Assembly: GCA_951406725.2 (NCBI GenBank)
Contig: OX597841.1
Coordinates: forward strand, 4,030,001 to 4,094,000
DNA from: Octopus vulgaris
Taxonomy: Eukaryota
Direction: 5' to 3'
DNA: 64,000 nt
Shown piece by piece: positions 1 through 53,444 of the stretch. The notes beneath the pieces were generated by a model. The model searched no databases. It was given only the letters and a program-made list of their open reading frames with translations, and was not told the DNA's origin. Every line of letters starts with the position of its first letter. Within the stretch, counting starts at the first letter, position 1. A program made the translations under genes and the position numbers.

Positions 1-2439
1 CGTCACCAGAAAGGCTCGACACCGTCACGGTGCCCTTAACCTGCAAAGGGAGGTAATTCCCCGATGAAGCGGAAACCACACACGGACCATGGTTTCAAGG
101 TGTATTGCCTATCATCGGCGTGTGGTAGGCCTCCGCTTCCTCGACGAACTCTCACTCTGCAGGATTTTCTTATATAGATTTTCAAGCAAAATACATTTGC
201 TGATTTCGAAAATCTGTTCGAAAGCAATAATAATTCTCTAAAAGGGATATAGACAGTAACTGCTCGATAACATAAGGGACTAAAGCCATCTGAATATGGC
301 TAGGGACAGGGCAGGGTGGTGGGGGTGTTACTGTTGCATTTAGCCCCAGGCGAACATCGACGTCACCAGAAAGGCTCGACACCGTCACGGTGCCCTTAAC
401 CTGCAAAGGGAGGTAATTCCCCGATGAAGCGGAAACCACACACGGACCATGGTTTCAAGGTGTATTGCCTATCATCGGCGTGTGGTAGGCCTCCGCTTCC
501 TCGACGAACTCTCACTCTGCAGGATTTTCTTATATAGATTTTCAAGCAAAATACATTTGCTGATTTCGAAAATCTGTTCGAAAGCAATAATAATTCTCTA
601 AAAGGGATATAGACAGTAACTGCTCGATAACATAAGGGACTAAAGCCATCTGAATATGGCTAGGGACAGGGCAGGGTGGTGGGGGTGTTACTGTTGCATT
701 TAGCCCCAGGCGAACATCGACGTCACCAGAAAGGCTCGACACCGTCACGGTGCCCTTAACCTGCAAAGGGAGGTAATTCCCCGATGAAGCGGAAACCACA
801 CACGGACCATGGTTTCAAGGTGTATTGCCTATCATCGGCGTGTGGTAGGCCTCCGCTTCCTCGACGAACTCTCACTCTGCAGGATTTTCTTATATAGATT
901 TTCAAGCAAAATACATTTGCTGATTTCGAAAATCTGTTCGAAAGCAATAATAATTCTCTAAAAGGGATATAGACAGTAACTGCTCGATAACATAAGGGAC
1001 TAAAGCCATCTGAATATGGCTAGGGACAGGGCAGGGTGGTGGGGGTGTTACTGTTGCATTTAGCCCCAGGCGAACATCGACGTCACCAGAAAGGCTCGAC
1101 ACCGTCACGGTGCCCTTAACCTGCAAAGGAGGTAATTCCCCGATGAAGCGGAAACCACACACGGACCATGGTTTCAAGGTGTATTGCCTATCATCGGCGT
1201 GTGGTAGGCCTCCGCTTCCTCGACGAACTCTCACTCTGCAGGATTTTCTTATATAGATTTTCAAGCAAAATACATTTGCTGATTTCGAAAATCTGTTCGA
1301 AAGCAATAATAATTCTCTAAAAGGGATATAGACAGTAACTGCTCGATAACATAAGGGACTAAAGCCATCTGAATATGGCTAGGGACAGGGCAGGGTGGTG
1401 GGGGTGTTACTGTTGCATTTAGCCCCAGGCGAACATCGACGTCACCAGAAAGGCTCGACACCGTCACGGTGCCCTTAACCTGCAAAGGGAGGTAATTCCC
1501 CGATGAAGCGGAAACCACACACGGACCATGGTTTCAAGGTGTATTGCCTATCATCGGCGTGTGGTAGGCCTCCGCTTCCTCGACGAACTCTCACTCTGCA
1601 GGATTTTCTTATATAGATTTTCAAGCAAAATACATTTGCTGATTTCGAAAATCTGTTCGAAAGCAATAATAATTCTCTAAAAGGGATATAGACAGTAACT
1701 GCTCGATAACATAAGGGACCAAAGCCATCTGAATATGGCTAGGGACAGGGCAGGGTGGTGGGGGTGTTACTGTTGCATTTAGCCCCAGGCGAACATCGAC
1801 GTCACCAGAAAGGCTCGACACCGTCACGGTGCCCTTAACCTGCAAAGGGAGGTAATTCCCCGATGAAGCGGAAACCACACACGGACCATGGTTTCAAGGT
1901 GTATTGCCTATCATCGGCGTGTGGTAGGCCTCCGCTTCCTCGACGAACTCTCACTCTGCAGGATTTTTATATAGATTTTCAAGCAAAATACATTTGCTGA
2001 TTTCGAAAATCTGTTCGAAAGCAATAATAATTCTCAAAAGGGATATAGACAGTAACTGCTCGATAACATAAGGGACTAAAGCCATCTGAATATGGCTAGG
2101 GACAGGGCAGGGTGGTGGGGGTGTTACTGTTGCATTTAGCCCCAGGCGAACATCGACGTCACCAGAAAGGCTCGACACCGTCACGGTGCCCTTAACCTGC
2201 AAAAGGGAGGTAATTCCCCGATGAAGCGGAAACCACACACGGACCATGGTTTCAAGGTGTATTGCCTATCATCGGCGTGTGGTAGGCCTCCGCTTCCTCG
2301 ACGAACTCTCACTCTGCAGGATTTTCTTATATAGATTTTCAAGCAAAATACATTTGCTGATTTCGAAAATCTGTTCGAAAGCAATAATAATTCTCTAAAA
2401 GGGATATAGACAGTAACTGCTCGATAACATAAGGGACTA
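1..2439 (-). repeat. 360-bp tandem array, left arm (~6.8 units, runs off window start); one hammerhead per unit on the minus strand; retrozyme/Penelope-like
   Basis: The lines starting at 1, 361 and 721 are identical, giving a period of 360. Later units differ only by a few 1-nt indels or substitutions (e.g. ~1128, 1720, ~1965, ~2036). Confidence 0.97.
79..124 (-). ncRNA. Minimal type I hammerhead motif in array unit (also 439-484, 799-844, 1158-1203, 1518-1563, 1878-1923, 2236-2281)
   Basis: Minus strand reads CACACG CCGATGA T-AGG-CAATACA-CCT-T GAAA CCATGG TC CGTGTG: stem I, U4C core, stem II, GAAA, palindromic stem III, GUC cleavage triplet. Confidence 0.8.
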
Positions 2440-3537
2440 TTAGAGAATTATTATTGCTTTCGAACAGATTTTCGAAATCAGCAAATGTATTTTGCTTGAA
2501 AATCTATATAAGAAAATCCTGCAGAGTGAGAGTTCGTCGAGGAAGCGGAGGCCTACCACACGCCGATGATAGGCAATACACCTTGAAACCATGGTCCGTG
2601 TGTGGTTTCCGCTTCATCGGGGAATTACCTCCCTTTGCAGGTTAAGGGCACCGTGACGGTGTCGAGCCTTTCTGGTGACGTCGATGTTCGCCTGGGGCTA
2701 AATGCAACAGTAACACCCCCACCACCCTGCCCTGTCCCTAGCCATATTCAGATGGCTTTAGTCCCTTATGTTATCGAGCAGTTACTGTCTATATCCCTTT
2801 TAGAGAATTATTATTGCTTTCGAACAGATTTTCGAAATCAGCAAATGTATTTTGCTTGAAAATCTATATAAGAAAATCCTGCAGAGTGAGAGTTCGTCGA
2901 GGAAGCGGAGGCCTACCACACGCCGATGATAGGCAATACACCTTGAAACCATGGTCCGTGTGTGGTTTCCGCTTCATCGGGGAATTACCTCCCTTTGCAG
3001 GTTAAGGGCACCGTGACGGTGTCGAGCCTTTCTGGTGACGTCGATGTTCGCCTGGGGCTAAATGCAACAGTAACACCCCCACCACCCTGCCCTGTCCCTA
3101 GCCATATTCAGATGGCTTTAGTCCCTTATGTTATCGAGCAGTTACTGTCTATATCCCTTTTAGAAGAATTATTATTGCTTTCGAACAGATTTTCGAAATC
3201 AGCAAATGTATTTTGCTTGAAAATCTATATAAGAAAATCCTGCAGAGTGAGAATTCGTCGAGGAAGCGGAGGCCTACCACACGCCGATGATAGGCAATAC
3301 ACCTTGAAACCATGGTCCGTGTGTGGTTTCCGCTTCATCGGGGAATTACCTCCCTTTGCAGGTTAAGGGCACCGTGACGGTGTCGAGCCTTTCTGGTGAC
3401 GTCGATGTTCGCCTGGGGCTAAATGCAACAGTAACACCCCCACCACCCTGCCCTGTCCCTAGCCATATTCAGATGGCTTTAGTCCCTTATGTTATCGAGC
3501 AGTTACTGTCTATATCCCTTTTAGAGAATTATTATTG

Positions 3538-3538
<1 letters not shown>
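2440..3538 (+). repeat. 360-bp tandem array, right (inverted) arm: 3 units plus 18 nt of terminal redundancy, ending in (TA)n
   Basis: Reverse complement of the left arm. It starts and ends with TTAGAGAATTATTATTGC and is followed directly by (TA)n at 3539. Confidence 0.97.
2557..2602 (+). ncRNA. Minimal type I hammerhead motif in inverted arm (also 2917-2962, 3278-3323); predicted cut 2596|2597
   Basis: cacacg ccgatga taggcaatacacctt gaaa ccatgg tc cgtgtg. Stem I extends through internal loops from 2518 to 2641 (gaagcgga/tccgcttc, cctgcagag/ctttgcagg). Confidence 0.8.
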
Positions 3539-3600
<62 letters not shown>

Positions 3601-3606
<6 letters not shown>

Positions 3607-3771
3607 TACGACGGGCTTCTTTCAGTGTCCGTCTACCAAATCCACTCACAAGGCACTGGTCGGCCCGGGGCTATAGTAGAAGACACTTGCCCAAGATGCC
3701 ACGCAGTGGGACTGAACCCGGAACCATGTGGTTGGTTAGCAAGCTACTTACCACACAGCCACTCCTGCGCC
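3601..3771 (-). mobile_element. tRNA-derived SINE family A, 5' half only
   Basis: Reverse complement of GGCGCAGGAGTGGCTGTGTGGTAAG...GGTTCAGTCCC (A/B boxes), shared with about 18 other copies in the window. Confidence 0.9.
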
Positions 3772-6208: not shown

Positions 6209-6444
6209 TATTCACAAAAAGAATAAAAAGTACTTCGGAATAGAATGAAGTGGTTCATTATTGTGAATGCAAAACCCACGTTAGAGAACATTTCTTCAGA
6301 TTCACACGTTTCTTTCCATAGTTCAAGAACACTTTCCAAAAGACGTCCATCACCATGTGTTAGTAGATCGATATACGTTTCTTTATCAATGGTTTTATAT
6401 TTTCGTTCGTAGCTTGATACTCTTAGTTTAAGTAATTCAATTTC

Positions 6445-6861
6445 TATTTCTTTACTACCCACAAGGGGCTAAACATAGAGGGGACAAACAAAGACAGACA
6501 AAGGGATTAAGTCGATTATATCGACCCCAGTGCGTAACTGGTACTTATTTAATCGACCCCGAAAGGATGAAAGGCAAAGTCGACCTCGGCGGAATTTGAA
6601 CTCAGAACGTAGCGGCAGACGAAATACCTATTTCTTTACTACCCACAAGGGGCTAAACACAGAGGGGACGAACAAGGACAGACAAACGGAGTAAGTCGAT
6701 TACATCGACCCAGTGCGTGACTGGTACTTATTTAATCGACCCTCGAAAGGATGAAAGGCAAAGTCGACCTCGGCGGAATTTGAACTCAGAACGCAACGGC
6801 AGACGAAATACCGCTAAGCATTTCGCCCGGCGTGCTCAAGTTTCTGCCAGCTCACCGCCTT
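6445..6861 (-). mobile_element. SINE family B (head plus tandemly repeated ~180-bp body)
   Basis: Reverse complement of AAGGCGG(C/T)GAGCTGGCAGAA...GAGTTCAAATTCC...GCCTTTCATCCTTTCG.GGGTCGAT, with two body units. Confidence 0.9.
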
Positions 6862-12920: not shown

Positions 12921-13362
12921 GGTATTATAGTAGTTGGGATTATAATGTGAGCCTTAATTAGCCATGTTGGCAAAATGTAAACAAAATAATCAGGTTTATA
13001 TTTTTATGGCCAGAAAGAAAGAAAACGATATGAACGTCAAAAAATTTTCCTCGCATTTTTACATTTTTCTTTCTTAATTTTTCAGGTCCCAAATTAATGG
13101 AACGAAACTAACGGAAAACCAAAGTAAGACAAACGGAGATATTTGGGTTCAAATGATGACAGAGGCACCTTCCTTCAAACATCCAAGGCGTATATTTATA
13201 TAAAAAGAGACAATATCAAATACAAACGGTTCCTCTGGATTTCTCTTCTATATTTGCATCGAGTCTTATCTTTCCATTTTTCTTTTCTTCTTCCTTTTCT
13301 TTTCCTCTCACTTGAATATCTAAGTCTGGTGATGGCAGCGGTGGAGTGGAATGTGGTAGCAT

Positions 13363-14031
13363 AAGGCGGCGAGCTGGCAGAACCGTTAGCACGCCGGGCG
13401 AAATGCTTAGCGGTATTTCGTCTGTCGTTACGTTCTGAGTTCAAATTCCGCCGAGGTCGACTTTGCCTTTCATCCTTTTGGGGTCGATAAATTAAGTACC
13501 AGTTACGCACTGGGGTCGATGTAATCGACTTAATACCTATGTCTGTCCTTGTTTGTCCCCTCTGTGTTTAGCCCCTTGTGGGTAATAAAGAAATAGGTAT
13601 CTATTCCGTTATAAGGCGGCGAGCTGGCAGAAACGTTAGCACGCCGGGCGAAATGCTTAGCGGTATTTCGTCTGTCGTTACGTTCTGAGTTCAAATTCCG
13701 CCGAGGTCGACTTTGCCTTTCATCCTTTCGGGGTCGATAAATTAAGTACCAGTTACGCACTGGGGTCGATGTAATCGACTTAATACCTATGTCTGTCCTT
13801 GTTTGTCCCCTCTGTGTTTAGCCCCTTGTGGGTAATAAAGAAATAGGTATTTCGTCTGTCGTTACGTTCTGAGTTCAAATTCCGCCGAGGTCGACTTTGC
13901 CTTTCATCCTTTCGGAGTCGTTAAATTAAGTACCAGTTACGCACTGGGGTCGATGTAATCGACTTAATCGGCTTATCTGTCCTTGTTTGTCCTCTCTGTG
14001 TTTAGCCCCTTGTGGGCAGTAAAGAAATAGG
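13363..14031 (+). mobile_element. SINE family B tandem (head+body, head+body, body)
   Basis: Two AAGGCGGCGAGCTGGCAG heads and three body units. Confidence 0.92.
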
Positions 14032-26279: not shown

Positions 26280-26871
26280 TTTCTTTACTACCCACAAGGG
26301 GCTAAACACAGAGGGGACAAACAAGGACAGACAAACGGATTAAGTCGATTATATCAACCCCAGTGCGTAACTGGTACTTAATTTATCGACCCCGAAAGGA
26401 TGAAAGGCAAAGTCGACCTCGGGCGAATTTTAACTCAGAACGTAGCGGCGGACGAAATACCTATTTCTTTACTACCCACAAGGGGCTAAACACAGAGGGG
26501 ACAAACAAGGACAGACAAACGGATTAAGTCGATTATATCGACCCCAGTGCGTAACTGGTACTTAATTTATCGACCCCGAAAGGATGAAAGGCAAAGTCGA
26601 CCTCGGGCGAATTTGAACTCAGAACGTGGCGGCGGACGAAATACCTATTTCTTTACTACCCACAAGGGGCTAAACACAGAGGGGACAAACAAGGACAGAC
26701 AAACGGATTAAGTCGATTATATCGACCCCAGGGCGCAACTGGTACTTAATCTATCGACCCCGAAAGGATGAAAAGCAAAGTCGACCTCGGGCGAATTTGA
26801 ACCCAGAACGTAACGGCAGACGAAATACGGTTACGCATTTCGCCCGGCGTGCTAACGGTTCTGCCAGCTCA
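26280..26871 (-). mobile_element. SINE family B, head plus 3 body units
   Basis: Three tandem ~187-bp units. Confidence 0.92.
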
Positions 26872-27478: not shown

Positions 27479-28083
27479 CTATTTCTTTATTACCCACAAG
27501 GGGCTAAACACAGAGATGACAAACAAGGACAGACATAGGTATTAAGTCGATTACATCGACCCCAGTGCGTAACTGGTATTTTATTTATCGACCCCGAAAG
27601 GATGAAAGAAAAAGTCGACCTCGGCGGAATTTGAACTCAGAACGTAGCGGCAGAAGAAATACCTATTTCTTTATTACCCACAAGGGGCTAAGCACAGAGA
27701 GGACAAACAAGGACAGATAAACGGATTAAGTCGATTACATCGACCCCAGTGCGTAACTGGTACTTTATTTATCGACAACGAAAGGATGAAAGGCAAAGTC
27801 GACCTCGGCGGAATTTGAACTCAGAACGTAGCAGCAGAAGAAATACCTATTTCTTTATTACCCCACAAGGGGCTAAGCACAGAGAGGACAAACAAGGACA
27901 GACATAGGTATTAAGTCGATTACATCGACCCCAGTGCGTAACTGGTACTTAATTTATCGACCCCGAAAGGATGAAAGGCAAAGTCGACCTCGGCGGAATT
28001 TGAACTCACAACGTAACGGCAGACGATATATACTGCTAAGCATTTCGCCCGACGTGCTAACGTTTCTGCCAGCTCGCCGCCTT
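27479..28083 (-). mobile_element. SINE family B, head plus 3 body units
   Basis: Three tandem units. Confidence 0.92.
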
Positions 28084-42160: not shown

Positions 42161-42339
42161 TATATGGGTACAGGACATCAGAAAAATACGTTGAGCACAA
42201 TGAGAAGCAAAAACATGAAAACAAAAAACAGAGAAACGAACTCAGATATGTCTTGATGGTTTACGTTTACAACCGAAATAAAAAAAATAATCAGAAAAGT
42301 TAGTGTGTATTTTATATTAAAACAATAATATATGCGTGT

Positions 42340-45300
42340 ACGTATGTTTGTATCAGTGTACGTGTGTTTATAACTGTGTACATGTGTTTATATCTGTGTA
42401 CATGTGTTTATATTTGTGTCCATGTGTTTATATCTGTGTATATGTGTTTATATCTGTGTACATGTGTTTATATCTGCGTACATGTGTTTATATTTGAGTA
42501 TGTGTGTTTATATCTGTGTACATGTGTTTATATCTGTGTACGTGTGTTTATATCTGTGTAAGTGTGTTTATATCTGTGTACGTGTGTTTATATCTGTGTA
42601 CATGTGTTTATATCTGTGTCCATGTGTTTATATCTGTGTACATGTGTTTATATTTGTGTACGCGTGTTTATATATGTGTCCATGTGTTTATATCTGTGTA
42701 CATGTGTTTATATTTGTGTACGCGTGTTTATATCTGTGTACGCGTGTTTATATCTGTATACATGTGTTTTTATATCTGTGTACATGTGTTTATATCTGTG
42801 TACATGTGTTTATATCTGTGTACATGTGTTTATATCTGTGTACGTGTGTTTATATCTGTGTACATGTGTTTATATCTGTGTACGTGTGTTTATATCTGTG
42901 TACATGTGTTTATATCTGTGCAAATGTGTTTATATCTGTGTACATGTATTTATATTTGTGTACGCGTGTTTATATCTGTGTACGTGTGTTTATATCTGTG
43001 TACGTGTGTTTATATCTGTGTACGTGTGTTTATATCTGTGTACATATGTTCATATCTGTGTACATGTATATATATCTGTGTACATGTGTTTATCTCTGTG
43101 TACATGTGTTTATATCTGTGTACGTGTGTTTATATCTGTGTACATGTGTTTATATCTGTGTACATGTGTTTATATCTGTGTATATGTGTTTATATCTGTG
43201 TATATGTGTTTATATCTGTGTACATGTGTTTATATCTGTGTATATGTGTTTATATCTGTGTACATGAGTTTATATCTGTGTACGTGTGTTTATATCTTTA
43301 TACGTGTGTTTATATCTGTGTACATGTGTTTATATCTTTATACGTGTGTTTATATCTGTGTACATGTGTTTATATCTGTGTACATGTGTTTATATCTGTG
43401 TACATGTGTTTATATCTTTATACGTGTGTTTATATCTGTGTAAGTGTGTTTATATCTGTGTACGTGTGTTTATATCTGTGTACATGTGTTTATATCTGTG
43501 TACATGTGTTTATATCTGTGTACATGTGTTTATATCTGTGTACATGTATTTATATTTGTGTACGCGTGTTTATATCTGTGTACGTGTGTTTATATCTGTG
43601 TACGTGTGTTTATATCTGTGTACATGTGTTTATATCTGTGTACATGTGTTTATATCTGTGTAAATGTGTTTATATCTGTGTACATGTATTTATATTTGTG
43701 TACGCGTGTTTATATCTGTGTACGTGTGTTTATATCTGTTTATGTGTGTTTATATCTGTGTACTGTGTACGTGTGTTTATATCTGTGTACGTGTGTTTAT
43801 ATCTGTGTACATATATGTGTACATGTGTTTATATCTGTGTATATCTGTGTACATGTGTTTATATCTGTGTACATGTGTTTATATCTGTGTACATGTGTTT
43901 ATATCTGTGTACGTGTGTTTATATCTGTGTACGTGTGTTTATATCTGTGTACATGTGTTTATATCTGTGTACATGTGTTTATATCTGTGTACATGTGTTT
44001 ATATCTGTGTACGCGTGTTTATATCTGTGTACTGTGTACATGTTTATATCTGTGTACGTGTGTTTATATCTGTGTACGTGTGTTTATATCTGTGTACATG
44101 TGTTTATATCTGTGTACGTGTGTTTATATCTGTGTACATATGTATATATCTGTGTACATGTGTTATATCTGTGTACATGTGTTTATCTCTGTGTACATGT
44201 GTTTATATCTGTGTACGTGTGTTTATATCTGTGTACGTGTGTTTATATCTGTGTACATGTGTTTATATCTGTGTATATGTGTTTATATCTGTGTATATGT
44301 GTTTATATCTGTGTACATGAGTTTATATCTGTGTATATGTGTTTATATCTGTGTACATGTGTTTATATCTGTGTACATGTGTTTATATCTTTATACGTGT
44401 GTTTATATCTGTGTACATGTGTTTATATCTTTATACGTGTGTTTATATCTGTGTACATGTGTTTATATCTGTGTACATGTGTTTATATCTGTGTACATGT
44501 GTTTATATCTTTATACGTGTGTTTATATCTGTGTACATGTGTTTATATCTGTGTACATGTGTTTATATCTGTGTACGTGTGTTTATATCTGTGTATATCT
44601 GTGTATATGTGTTTATATGTGTTTATATCTGTGTACATGTGTTTATATCTGTGTACGTGTGTTTATATCTGTGTACATGTGTTTATATCTGTGTACATGT
44701 GTTTATATCTGTGAATGTGTGTTTATATCTGTGTACATGTGTTTATATCTGTGTACGTGTGTTTATATCTGTGTACATGTGTTTATATCTGTGTACATGT
44801 GTTTATATCTTTATACGTGTGTTTATATCTGTGTACATGTGTTTATATCTTTATACGTGTGTTTATATCTGTGTACATGTGTTTATATCTGTGTACGTGT
44901 GTTTATATCTGTGTACATGTGTTTATATCTGTGTACATGTGTTTATATCTTTATACGTGTGTTTATATCTGTGTACATGTGTTTATATCTGTGTACGTGT
45001 GTTTATATCTGTGTACATGTGTTTATATCTGTGTACATGTGTTTATATCTGTGTATATCTGTGTACATGTGTTTATATCTGTGTATATGTGTTTATATCT
45101 GTGTACATGTGTTTATATCTGTGTATATCTGTGTATATGTGTTTATATCTGTGTACATGTGTTTATATCTGTGTACATGTGTTTATATCTTTGTACGTGT
45201 GTTTATATCTGTGTACATGTGTTTATATCTGTGTACATGTATCTGTGTGTACATGTGTTTATATCTTTATACGTGTTTTTATATCTGTGTACATGTGTTT

Positions 45301-46937
45301 ATATCTGTGTACATGTGTTTATATCTGTGTACGTGTGTTTATATCTGTGTATGTGTGTTTATATCTGTGTACATATGTTTATATCTGTGTACATGTGTCT
45401 ATATCTATATACATGTGTTTATATCTGTGTACATGTGTCTATATCTGTGTACATGTGATTATATCTGTGTACATGTGTTTATATCTGTGTACATGTGTTT
45501 ATATCTGTGTTCATGTGTTTATATATGTGTATGTGTGTTTATATCTGTGTACGTGTGTTTATATCTGTGTACATGTGTTTATATCTGTGTATGTGTGTTT
45601 ATATCTGTGTACATGTGTTTATATCTGTGTACGTGTGTATATATCTGTGTACGTGTGTTTATATCTGTGTAGTCGTGTTTATATCTGTGTACATGTGTTT
45701 GTATATGCGTACGTGTGTTTATATCTGTGTACGTGTGTTTATATCTGTGTACGTGTGTTTATATCTGTGTACATGTGTTTATATCTGTGTACGTGTGTTT
45801 ATATCTGTGTACATGTGTTTATATCAGTGTACGTGTGTTTATATCTGTGTACATGTGTTTATATCTGTGTACATGTGTTTATATCTGTGTACGTGTGTTT
45901 ATATCTGTGTACGTGTGTTTATATCTGTGTACGTGTGTTTATATCTGTGTACGTGTGTTTATATCTGTGTACGTGTGTTTATATCTGTGTACGTGTGTCT
46001 ATAGCTGTGTACATGTGTTTATATCTGTGTATATCTGTGTATATGTGTTTATATCTGTGTACATGTGTTTATATCTGTGTACGTGTGTTTATATCTGTGT
46101 ATATCTGTGTATATGTGTTTATATCTGTGTACATGTGTTTATATCTGTGTACATGTGTTTATATTTGTGTATGTGTGTTTATATCTGTGTACGTGTGTTT
46201 ATATCTGTGTACATGTGTTTATATCTTTATACATGTGTTTATATCTGTGAACATGTGTTTATATTTGTGTATGTGTGTTTATATCTGTGTAGGCGTGTTT
46301 ATATCTGTGTACATGTGTTTATATCTGTGTACGTGTGTTTATATCTGTGTACATGTGTTTATATCTATGTACATGTGTTTATATCTGTGTACGTGTGTTT
46401 ATATCTGTGTAAATGTGTTTATATCTGTGTACATGTGTTTATATCTTTATACATGTGTTTATATCTGTGTACGTGTGTTTATATCTGTGAACATGTGTTT
46501 ATATTTGTGTATGTGTGTTTATATCTGTGTAGGCGTGTTTATATCTGTGTACATGTGTTTATAGCTGTGTAGGTGTGTTTATATCTGTTTACGTGTGTTT
46601 ATATCTGTGTACATGTGTTTATATCTGTGTACGTGTGTTTATATCTGTGTACATGTGTTTATATCTGTATACATGTGTTTATATCTGTGTACATGTGTTT
46701 ATATCTGTATACACGTGTTCATATCTGTGTACATGTGTTTATATCTGTGTACGTGTGTTTATATCTGTGTACGTGTGTTTATATCTGGGTACGTGTGTTT
46801 ATATCTGTGTATATGTGTTTATATCTATCTACGTGTTTTTGTATATGTGTACGTGTCCTTATATCTGTGTATATGTGTTTATATCTGTGTAGTGTGTTTA
46901 TATCTGTGTATATGTGTTTGTATCTGTGTACGTGTGT
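42340..46937. repeat. 4.6-kb minisatellite, 20-bp unit gtgtttatatctgtgtac(a/g)t, ~230 copies
   Basis: Period 20 is visible throughout; source of the 700-aa pseudo-ORFs. Confidence 0.98.
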
Positions 46938-49257: not shown

Positions 49258-49605
49258 CTTCGCCGCCGCCGCCGCCTCCGCCGCCTGCGCCGCCTCCGCC
49301 GCCTGCGCCGCCTCCGCCGCCTGCGCCGCCTCCGCCGCCTGCGCCGCCTCCGCCGCCTGCGCCGCCTCCGCCGCCTGCGCCGCCTCCGCCGCCTGCGCCT
49401 CCTCCGCCGCCGCCACCTCCGCCTCCTCCGCCCCCGCCCCTGCCGCCGCCCCTGCCGCCGCCCCTGCCGCCGCCCCTGCCGCCGCCCCTGCCGCCGCCCC
49501 TGCCGCCGCCCCTGCCGCCGCCCCTGCCGCCGCCCCTGCCGCCGCCCCTGCCGCCGCCCCTGCCGCCGCCTCCACCGCCGCTGCCTCCACCGCCGCTGCC
49601 TCCGC

Positions 49606-49636
<31 letters not shown>

Positions 49637-49760
49637 TCCGCCGCCTCCGCCGCCTCCGCCGCCTCCGCCGCCTCCGCCGCTGCCGCCTCCGCCGCTGCCG
49701 CCTTCGCCACTGCCTATGCCACCGCCTCCGCCGCCACAAACTCCGCCGCCGCCTCCTCCA
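49258..49760. repeat. GC-rich (CCG)-based compound repeat (18-, 12- and 9-bp units)
   Basis: Visible in the sequence. Confidence 0.92.
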
Positions 49761-52837: not shown

Positions 52838-53444
52838 AAGGCGGCGAGCTGGCAGAAACGTTAGCGCGCCGGGCGAAATGCTTAGCGGTATTTCGTCTGC
52901 CGTTACGTTCTGAGTTCAAATTCCGCCGAGGTCGACTTTGCCATATCATCCTTTCGGGGTCGATTAAATAAGTACTAGTTTCGCACTGGGGTCGATGTAA
53001 TCGACTTAATTCGTTTGTCTGTCCTTGTTTGTCCTCTCTATGTTTAGCCCCTTGTGGGTAGTAAAGAAATAGAAATAGGTATTTCGTCTGTCGTTACGTT
53101 CTGAGTTCAAATTCCGCCGAGGTCGACTTTGCCTTCCATCCTTTCGGGGTCGATTAAATAAGTACCAGTTTCGCACTGGGTCGATGTAATCGACTTAATC
53201 CCTTTGTCTGTCCTTGTTTGTCCCCTCTATGTTTAGCCCCTTGTGGGTAGTAAAGAAATAGGTATTTCGTCTGCCGTTACGTTCTGAGTTCAAATTCCGC
53301 CGAGGTCGACTTTGCCTTTCATCCTTTCGGGATCGATTAAATAAGTAGCAGTTACGCACTGGGGTCGATATAATCGACTTAATCCGTTTGTCTGTCCTTG
53401 TTTGTCCCCTCTGTGTTTAGCCCCTTGTGGGCAGTAAAGAAATA
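52838..53444 (+). mobile_element. SINE family B, head plus 3 body units
   Basis: Three tandem units. Confidence 0.92.

Follow-up and report, generated by a model that had tools for sequence, protein, structure and literature searches.

Metazoan non-LTR retrozymes, known from coral, mussel and axolotl (PMC7229834) and from Xenopus (10.64898/2026.07.22.740005), are described in the available text of these sources as tandem non-coding units of about 350 nt with less than 50% GC, each carrying one type I hammerhead with a weak palindromic stem III in a self-paired monomer, and their expression as circular RNA has been demonstrated. Penelope-like elements (PLEs) have been proposed as their drivers (PMC7229834; 10.64898/2026.07.22.740005); a preprint of 2026 links the retrozymes of vertebrates to PLEs through co-occurrence and the phylogeny of terminal repeats, leaving the mechanism open (10.64898/2026.07.22.740005), and rolling copying on a circular template has been proposed since 2014 (PMC4209133; PMC7229834). 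The hallmarks of PLEs are an inverted truncated copy, a tail at a single end and a bias towards microsatellites (10.1101/2021.04.23.441226), and a PLE reconstituted in vitro nicks AT-rich DNA on both strands and uses two internal start sites that bound the tail (PMC11167929). The octopus family described here bears on two open questions, namely the way in which animal retrozymes move and the way in which PLEs produce insertions that are tandem and inverted.

The window, a 64,000-nt stretch of the Octopus vulgaris genome (G000:C28:4030001-4094000; 2.8 Gb searched), begins with ten motif-bearing units of 358-361 bp that differ from one another at 0-4 positions, as the first-pass annotation had reported. 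Its description of the unit as retrozyme-like also holds, the 360-bp repeat being tandem, within the 150-450 nt range of such elements, without LTR or ORF, below 50% GC (45-48% over positions 1-3000) and provided with a predicted type I hammerhead in 10 of 10 units, the core of which deviates (U4C). Stops occur in all six frames and the longest open frame is shorter than 100 aa; an 86-codon frame was dropped as short and no better conserved than the DNA. The earlier reading as one tandem array was correct as to the repeated units, but overlooked that they run in two directions, with seven of the motifs on the minus and three on the plus strand, in arms that meet head to head (Table 1). The left arm continues for 94 bp beyond the start of the window to a short 3' end (unit position ~333-335), and both outer ends of the array adjoin (TA)n. 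The array probably goes back to a single recent insertion event, in which a 360-nt unit that codes for no protein but has a predicted hammerhead was likely placed in (TA)n by a PLE reverse transcriptase-endonuclease that copied one monomer RNA, probably a circle, many times.

Table 1. Features of the array at the start of the window, in window positions; unit coordinates are defined on 2440-2799, with the predicted cut at unit 157|158.
Feature	Position	Strand	Remark
Left arm	1..2439	-	about 7 head-to-tail 360-bp units, ribozyme sense minus
Right arm	2440..3538	+	3 units + 18 nt; outer end is the long (tail) 3' end
Head-to-head junction of two 5'-truncated arms	2439..2440	.	left-arm unit position 320 meets right-arm position 1
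Tail of ~45 nt, at this outer end only	3494..3538	+	stretch between the two fixed 3' end points
(TA)n target microsatellite	3539..3608	.	other half left of the window
Strongly conserved non-ribozyme block of the superfamily	2680..2818	+	covers both insertion end points; alignment of seven monomers
Type I hammerhead motif	2557..2602	+	predicted cut 2596|2597
Further motif copies	2917-2962, 3278-3323	+	same pattern
Further motif copies	2236-2281, 1878-1923, 1518-1563, 1158-1203, 799-844, 439-484, 79-124	-	same pattern
Long interrupted hairpin	2518..2641	+	extends stem I; keeps both ends of the cut monomer together (fold)

The term satellite, also used in the first-pass annotation, does not apply: instead of long one-directional blocks at few loci there is a dispersed family of short two-armed insertions on many contigs, with a median arm of 526 nt, a maximum of 5.3 kb and two orientations. 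A genome-wide count of the exact ribozyme pattern gives 866 occurrences (control 0), and the copy-number check proposed earlier found at least 203 dispersed matches to the unit (40 of 750 candidates scored), with 98-100% identity among the matches listed, which bears out the suggestion of recent amplification. The 360-bp repeat is a young dispersed retroelement, inserted at hundreds of scattered places of which the array is one. Sister families of 353-360 bp with the same layout account for 147 and 730 pattern matches, and a generalised hammerhead pattern finds 3,689 motifs (control 0). An older sister family (L101, L201-L230), 15-20% decayed, is homologous along the whole unit and has the same inverted-arm layout, so the lineage has been active in several waves. 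Standard searches overlook such families: Rfam scored none of ten motifs, and a single pattern found 3,689. Sister-family insertions at L262 (G000:C1:94319500-94329400) and L261 lie within units, 1.38 kb and 1.63 kb long respectively, that are tandemly duplicated as DNA, and a distant hammerhead-bearing element with a U3-A8 core and a different palindrome is inserted as a near-perfect mirror at L379:6490-6930.

The motif consists of a 6-bp stem I, a core with U4C, a 3-bp stem II with U-U at its base and a palindromic stem III; the hairpin that extends it and the predicted cleavage site are, by position and by fold, where they had been claimed to be. From cut to cut, the monomer has a predicted folding energy of -122.8 kcal/mol (z -5.25; 0 of 100 shuffles equally stable), with stem I closed by its two ends. 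The Rfam search recommended in the first-pass annotation recognised 0 of 10 motifs, with no hammerhead at gathering score in the window and none at E<=10 in 2440-3200. In a set of 19 motifs taken from various families, pairing holds in 96% of cells and 7 of 15 pairs have two-sided changes, values as high being reached in 0 of 500 shuffles, and slid alignments give at most one two-sided pair; the pairs of stem II and outer stem III were fixed by the search pattern and are hence uninformative, those of stem I, the 3-8 core position and inner stem III being free. The core 3-8 pair varies among C3-G8, U3-A8 and U3-G8 across families, and stem III is palindromic in 92 of the first 100 superfamily motifs listed, with seven different palindromes (a hand count, in which tandem copies are not independent). 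Judged from sequence, this covariation of stem I, the 3-8 pair and the palindromic stem III among sister families is as expected of a dimer-acting type I hammerhead, which sustains the earlier assignment to the dimer type, with cleavage predicted; the stem covariation whose absence was to have told against that assignment is present in seven two-sided pairs. Because the stem III palindrome and the core pair have been renewed family after family, selection on the RNA is needed.

A palindromic stem III is a known mark of dimer-acting hammerheads, and U3-A8 is a known PLE variant (PMC4209133). The core had been called non-canonical, and it does have U4C and U-U, but neither is exceptional here: a young intact PLE family of the same genome has both together with a palindrome, and the axolotl retrozyme HHR_Amex2 likewise has U-U at the base of stem II (PMC7229834). 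U4C, which occurs naturally, has weak activity in vitro yet suffices in a viroid (PMC3088659), and dimers of Xenopus retrozymes were cleaved in one of nine cases and uncleaved in eight (10.64898/2026.07.22.740005); by analogy, the low in vitro activity of U4C and the uncleaving Xenopus dimers weigh against the predicted ribozyme being active. Newt satellite 2 and viroid-like circular RNAs resemble the octopus unit, as far as their accounts extend (PMC7229834, PMC4209133), in a dimer-dependent hammerhead (predicted in octopus) and a unit of ~330 nt; the octopus family differs in having dispersed target-primed insertions rather than large satellite blocks and in giving no sign of RNA-to-RNA replication. 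A hammerhead-like string on the reverse strand was rejected, being the complement of the long hairpin and having no stem I.

Insertion anatomy was read from 86 fetched loci, namely the 40 best matches to the unit, a choice that favours full-length copies with the most common haplotype, and a further 46 chosen by position on two contigs. L050 and L348, which are riddled with indels, were excluded from all counts, leaving 84 loci; L056 was excluded from the 5'-end hazard and L119 from the haplotype counts. Two head-to-head arms are present at 68 loci, one arm at 15 and a complex arrangement at 1. The 3' ends fall at two fixed points separated by about 45 nt, at unit ~333-335 (short) and ~379 (tail), which lie ~176 and ~222 nt downstream of the predicted cut and not at it; the short end falls at or before 333, since the terminal units of L102, L103 and L106 lack a variant at 334 that all their inner units have. 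One short end is combined with one tail end at 62 of the 68 two-armed loci, two tail ends occur once and two short ends never, the other 5 having an end outside the windows of both types. A TA run adjoins 136 of 148 ends, and at 10 of 29 non-TA loci (families pooled) there are duplications of at least 10 nt, against 6 of 292 mismatched pairs.

A non-LTR retrozyme is expected to be found, as here, in retroposed copies that are dispersed and have duplicated target sites, and a tail at one end (62/68), an inverted 5'-truncated copy (68/84) and a microsatellite target (136/148) are what is expected of a non-autonomous PLE; the element has the testable features of both, its ribozyme being predicted. 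Re-insertion of multimers by a borrowed reverse transcriptase, as envisaged in the first-pass annotation, is supported, and the insertion anatomy narrows the enzyme to that of a PLE. The pairing of one short with one tail end suggests that both start sites are used in one event, one per strand. In vitro, an Anolis PLE had no strand preference between its two start sites, and its ribozyme mutants were still inserted (PMC11167929); the one-short/one-tail rule would carry the two-start-site result of the same work, in the part of it available, to a coordinated two-strand event in vivo. The conserved block (Table 1) may be the region at which the PLE protein binds and starts, by analogy with that system (PMC11167929). 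At 9 of 62 loci the two arms stop at template positions no more than 20 nt apart (2.3 expected), and joining at local hairpins could contribute to these shared stops. Fold-back copying of one arm from the other was discarded as a general route, the short-ended arm being the longer at 29 of 68 loci. The junction between the arms holds foreign sequence of 110-260 nt at L056:2141-2290 and L119:1656-1925, perhaps from another RNA or from repair. L348 and L050 consist of short pieces interleaved with TA runs or have many deletions, and are either assembly errors or an odd class of aborted insertions.

Endonuclease-bearing PLEs (Neptune, Poseidon, Naiad and Hydra; 10.1101/2021.04.23.441226, PMC11167929, PMC4209133), in the portions of these sources at hand, share with the octopus family the inverted 5'-truncated copy, the tail at one end, the microsatellite bias, two internal start points, a hammerhead with a palindromic stem III and the U3-A8 variant. 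The octopus element differs from them in having no ORF, in repeating a 360-nt unit up to ~23 times and in its tail of ~45 nt rather than 30-40 nt. The RT and GIY-YIG ORF of an autonomous PLE is absent from the unit, and none was recognised by eye among 120 listed frames of at least 120 aa in the rest of the window. According to the text available, Chlamys PLEs mostly lack hammerheads, and the non-autonomous ones, such as Chlamydomonas MRC1, generally resemble their autonomous partner at the 3' end (10.1101/2021.04.23.441226). MRC1 illustrates that non-autonomous PLEs without a known ribozyme also make head-to-tail multimers (10.1101/2021.04.23.441226), and such multimers count, by analogy, against the explanation favoured here. 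The available descriptions of metazoan non-LTR retrozymes are without inverted arms, fixed paired end points and a tail, all of which are present in the octopus family; their circular RNAs have been demonstrated, whereas those of the octopus unit are presumed. No description of an octopus or cephalopod retrozyme was found in the literature, the comparison being with papers rather than repeat databases (the supplement of PMC7229834 and one file of PMC4209133 may list the family), and none of an inverted, tailed, rolling-circle non-autonomous PLE was found at the level of titles and abstracts. The class is already known; the advance lies in anatomical evidence, at the level of insertion ends, for the type of driver and for copying from a single template.

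The genome has a rich, active PLE fauna: intact autonomous PLEs are present, comprising young RT + GIY-YIG families with long open frames, and there are further RT families. Neither blastn nor a profile of seven monomers found a terminal repeat homologous to the unit in about 150 sampled PLE-bearing loci, many of which are copies of a few families or fall short of the element ends, in a genome that holds thousands more unscored candidates; the linkage to a Penelope RT/GIY-YIG ORF that the first-pass annotation proposed to look for was likewise not found in that sample. The absence of a homologous terminal repeat from the sampled PLEs counts against a PLE driver. Among the retrozymes described elsewhere, by contrast, many families match the terminal repeat of a known PLE; in Xenopus, 24 of 57 retrozyme families match known transposable elements, 21 of 22 of these being PLEs (figures as given in the available text of 10.64898/2026.07.22.740005). 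Apparent links between unit and PLE at L267, L391, L261 and L121 proved to be separate insertions with microsatellite or other repeats between them, and other copies of the L267 PLE family end without the unit. No PLE arm was recognised in the flanks of the 15 one-armed insertions or in the two junction inserts, where matches to PLE loci, judged by position, resemble shared flanking repeats.

At least two young PLE families also insert in (TA)n, with tails of ~32-37 nt. One (L267:2082-4510 and L268, on C14 and C12; copies L305-L334) is a very young RT + GIY-YIG family with copies ~100% identical, a (TA)n target, an inverted 5' copy, a ~32-nt tail and a hammerhead with U4C, U-U in stem II and a palindromic stem III; it is the first candidate for the driver by ribozyme type, age and target, and a linker motif would place it in the Neptune clade. 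Two others, L278/L279 (a 781-aa frame, (TA)n target and ~37-nt tail) and L265/L266/L270, have terminal hammerhead-like motifs with a U3-A8 core and 6-nt palindromes. L375-L394 hold many more intact RT elements, 760-990 aa long, each with long linkers rich in Asn and a nuclease-like part at the C-terminus.

Evidence on the template comes from 279 units of 71 loci. The units differ by 0.22% within arms, by 0.19% between the two arms of a locus and by 1.3% between loci, and the haplotype is the same in 79% of within-locus pairs, compared with 20% after shuffling. L102 contains 22 full units over 8.3 kb that represent one haplotype with two singletons. Variants fill arrays on both arms at L104 (51C, one extra variant in all units), L134 (261G) and L047 (110G), and in the window insertion a variant rare elsewhere is present in 9 of 10 units. 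Since a variant born in one unit comes to fill an array, a one-to-many step is needed, most simply rolling reverse transcription on a circle. These sequence comparisons point to a template of one monomer, copied repeatedly and probably circular. Uniform arrays amount to a genomic test of rolling copying, and the circular-RNA model becomes testable: the substrate is small, codes for no protein and is very young, and it offers hundreds of insertions with ends resolved to single bases. The 5' ends of arms are ~2.9-fold denser in unit 158-255 than in 60-157, a bin width chosen by the analyst (28 versus 8 in the first lap, p 0.004; 36 versus 11 in later laps, p 0.001), and this excess 3' of the predicted cut fits templates that end there, or stalling in the long stem. 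Contigs of 390 nt (360+30, a closed assembly-graph loop) are found in five of seven sequencing runs (X1, X3, X5, X14, X16), none of the runs being recorded as RNA, and tandem DNA yields the identical contig.

The sequence of events that we favour would start with transcription of an array through several units, followed by pairing of neighbouring ribozymes via the palindromic stem III, a structure indicated by covariation, and the presumed cleavage that releases monomers. The monomer would fold its ends together, and a host ligase would probably join them, as in other retrozymes. A PLE protein, probably a dimer, would nick both target strands ~10-15 nt apart, leaving the duplications that are seen, and two cDNAs would start at two internal RNA sites ~45 nt apart, to which the end points and their one-of-each pairing correspond. 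Both cDNAs would exceed the unit length, by rolling copying as the uniform units suggest, and would join head to head to form the arms now present.

PLE insertion from a linear template, without a covalent circle, is the nearest alternative and a somewhat unlikely one; the template would be an uncut multi-unit transcript of a uniform array, or a cut monomer with its ends held together from which the enzyme jumps end to end. Mixed arrays, found at 7 of the 38 loci with at least three units, are in keeping with it, and count against a strict single-monomer circle unless there was later conversion or multi-unit templates were used. In its favour, too, the outermost unit of both arms at L067, one of the mixed loci, has a variant missing from the inner units, 4 of 154 5' ends lie at unit position 159, beside the predicted cut, as a linear template would have it, and in vitro the Anolis PLE worked mainly on RNA that had not been processed (PMC11167929). 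Read-through of an uncut transcript, however, can only keep or shorten arrays, yet single-unit variants fill arrays on both arms, which calls for a one-to-many step, and the variant lists contain no indel scars at the cut site, where end-jumping might leave some. Growth at the DNA level is improbable: short PLE insertions would have been lengthened or homogenised later by unequal exchange, gene conversion or DNA circles, and the ribozyme would have survived from a PLE terminal repeat as a relic. The shared variants interspersed in L059, L045 and L038 do look like conversion, and local DNA amplification has been proposed for vertebrate retrozymes (10.64898/2026.07.22.740005), but the inverted arms are both long and of one haplotype with singletons scarce (2 in 22 units at L102), and a relic does not account for the renewal of stem III palindrome and core pair across families, which needs selection on RNA. 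That the array is a common satellite, or an artefact of assembly, in which a hammerhead-like motif arose by chance, as the lack of an Rfam match and the non-canonical core might suggest, is hardly credible, being largely refuted by the end-point counts and the covariation and opposed by 866 exact motifs against a control of 0, by the target duplications and by the presence of the unit in independent sequencing runs.

A broader reading can be put forward tentatively, although we would sooner doubt it than rely on it: every two-armed array would be the fossil of one twin-primed rolling-circle event, in which a dimeric PLE enzyme on one 360-nt RNA circle used one start site per target strand and rolled both cDNAs round it, and the superfamily would be a long-lived viroid-like lineage, with its own ribozyme and enzyme-binding fold under selection, that parasitises PLEs without sharing sequence with them.

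The rest of the window is AT-rich and full of repeats, with a GC-rich (CGC)n tract (70% GC) at 49261-49753 and, at 42336-46937, a minisatellite of 4.6 kb in which a 20-bp unit recurs 230 times (90% matches). The short repeats that flank the array look like octopus SINEs; a 184-bp SINE-like repeat occurs as dimers or trimers at 6444-6812, 13361-14031, 26280-26828, 27479-28030 and 52887-53444.
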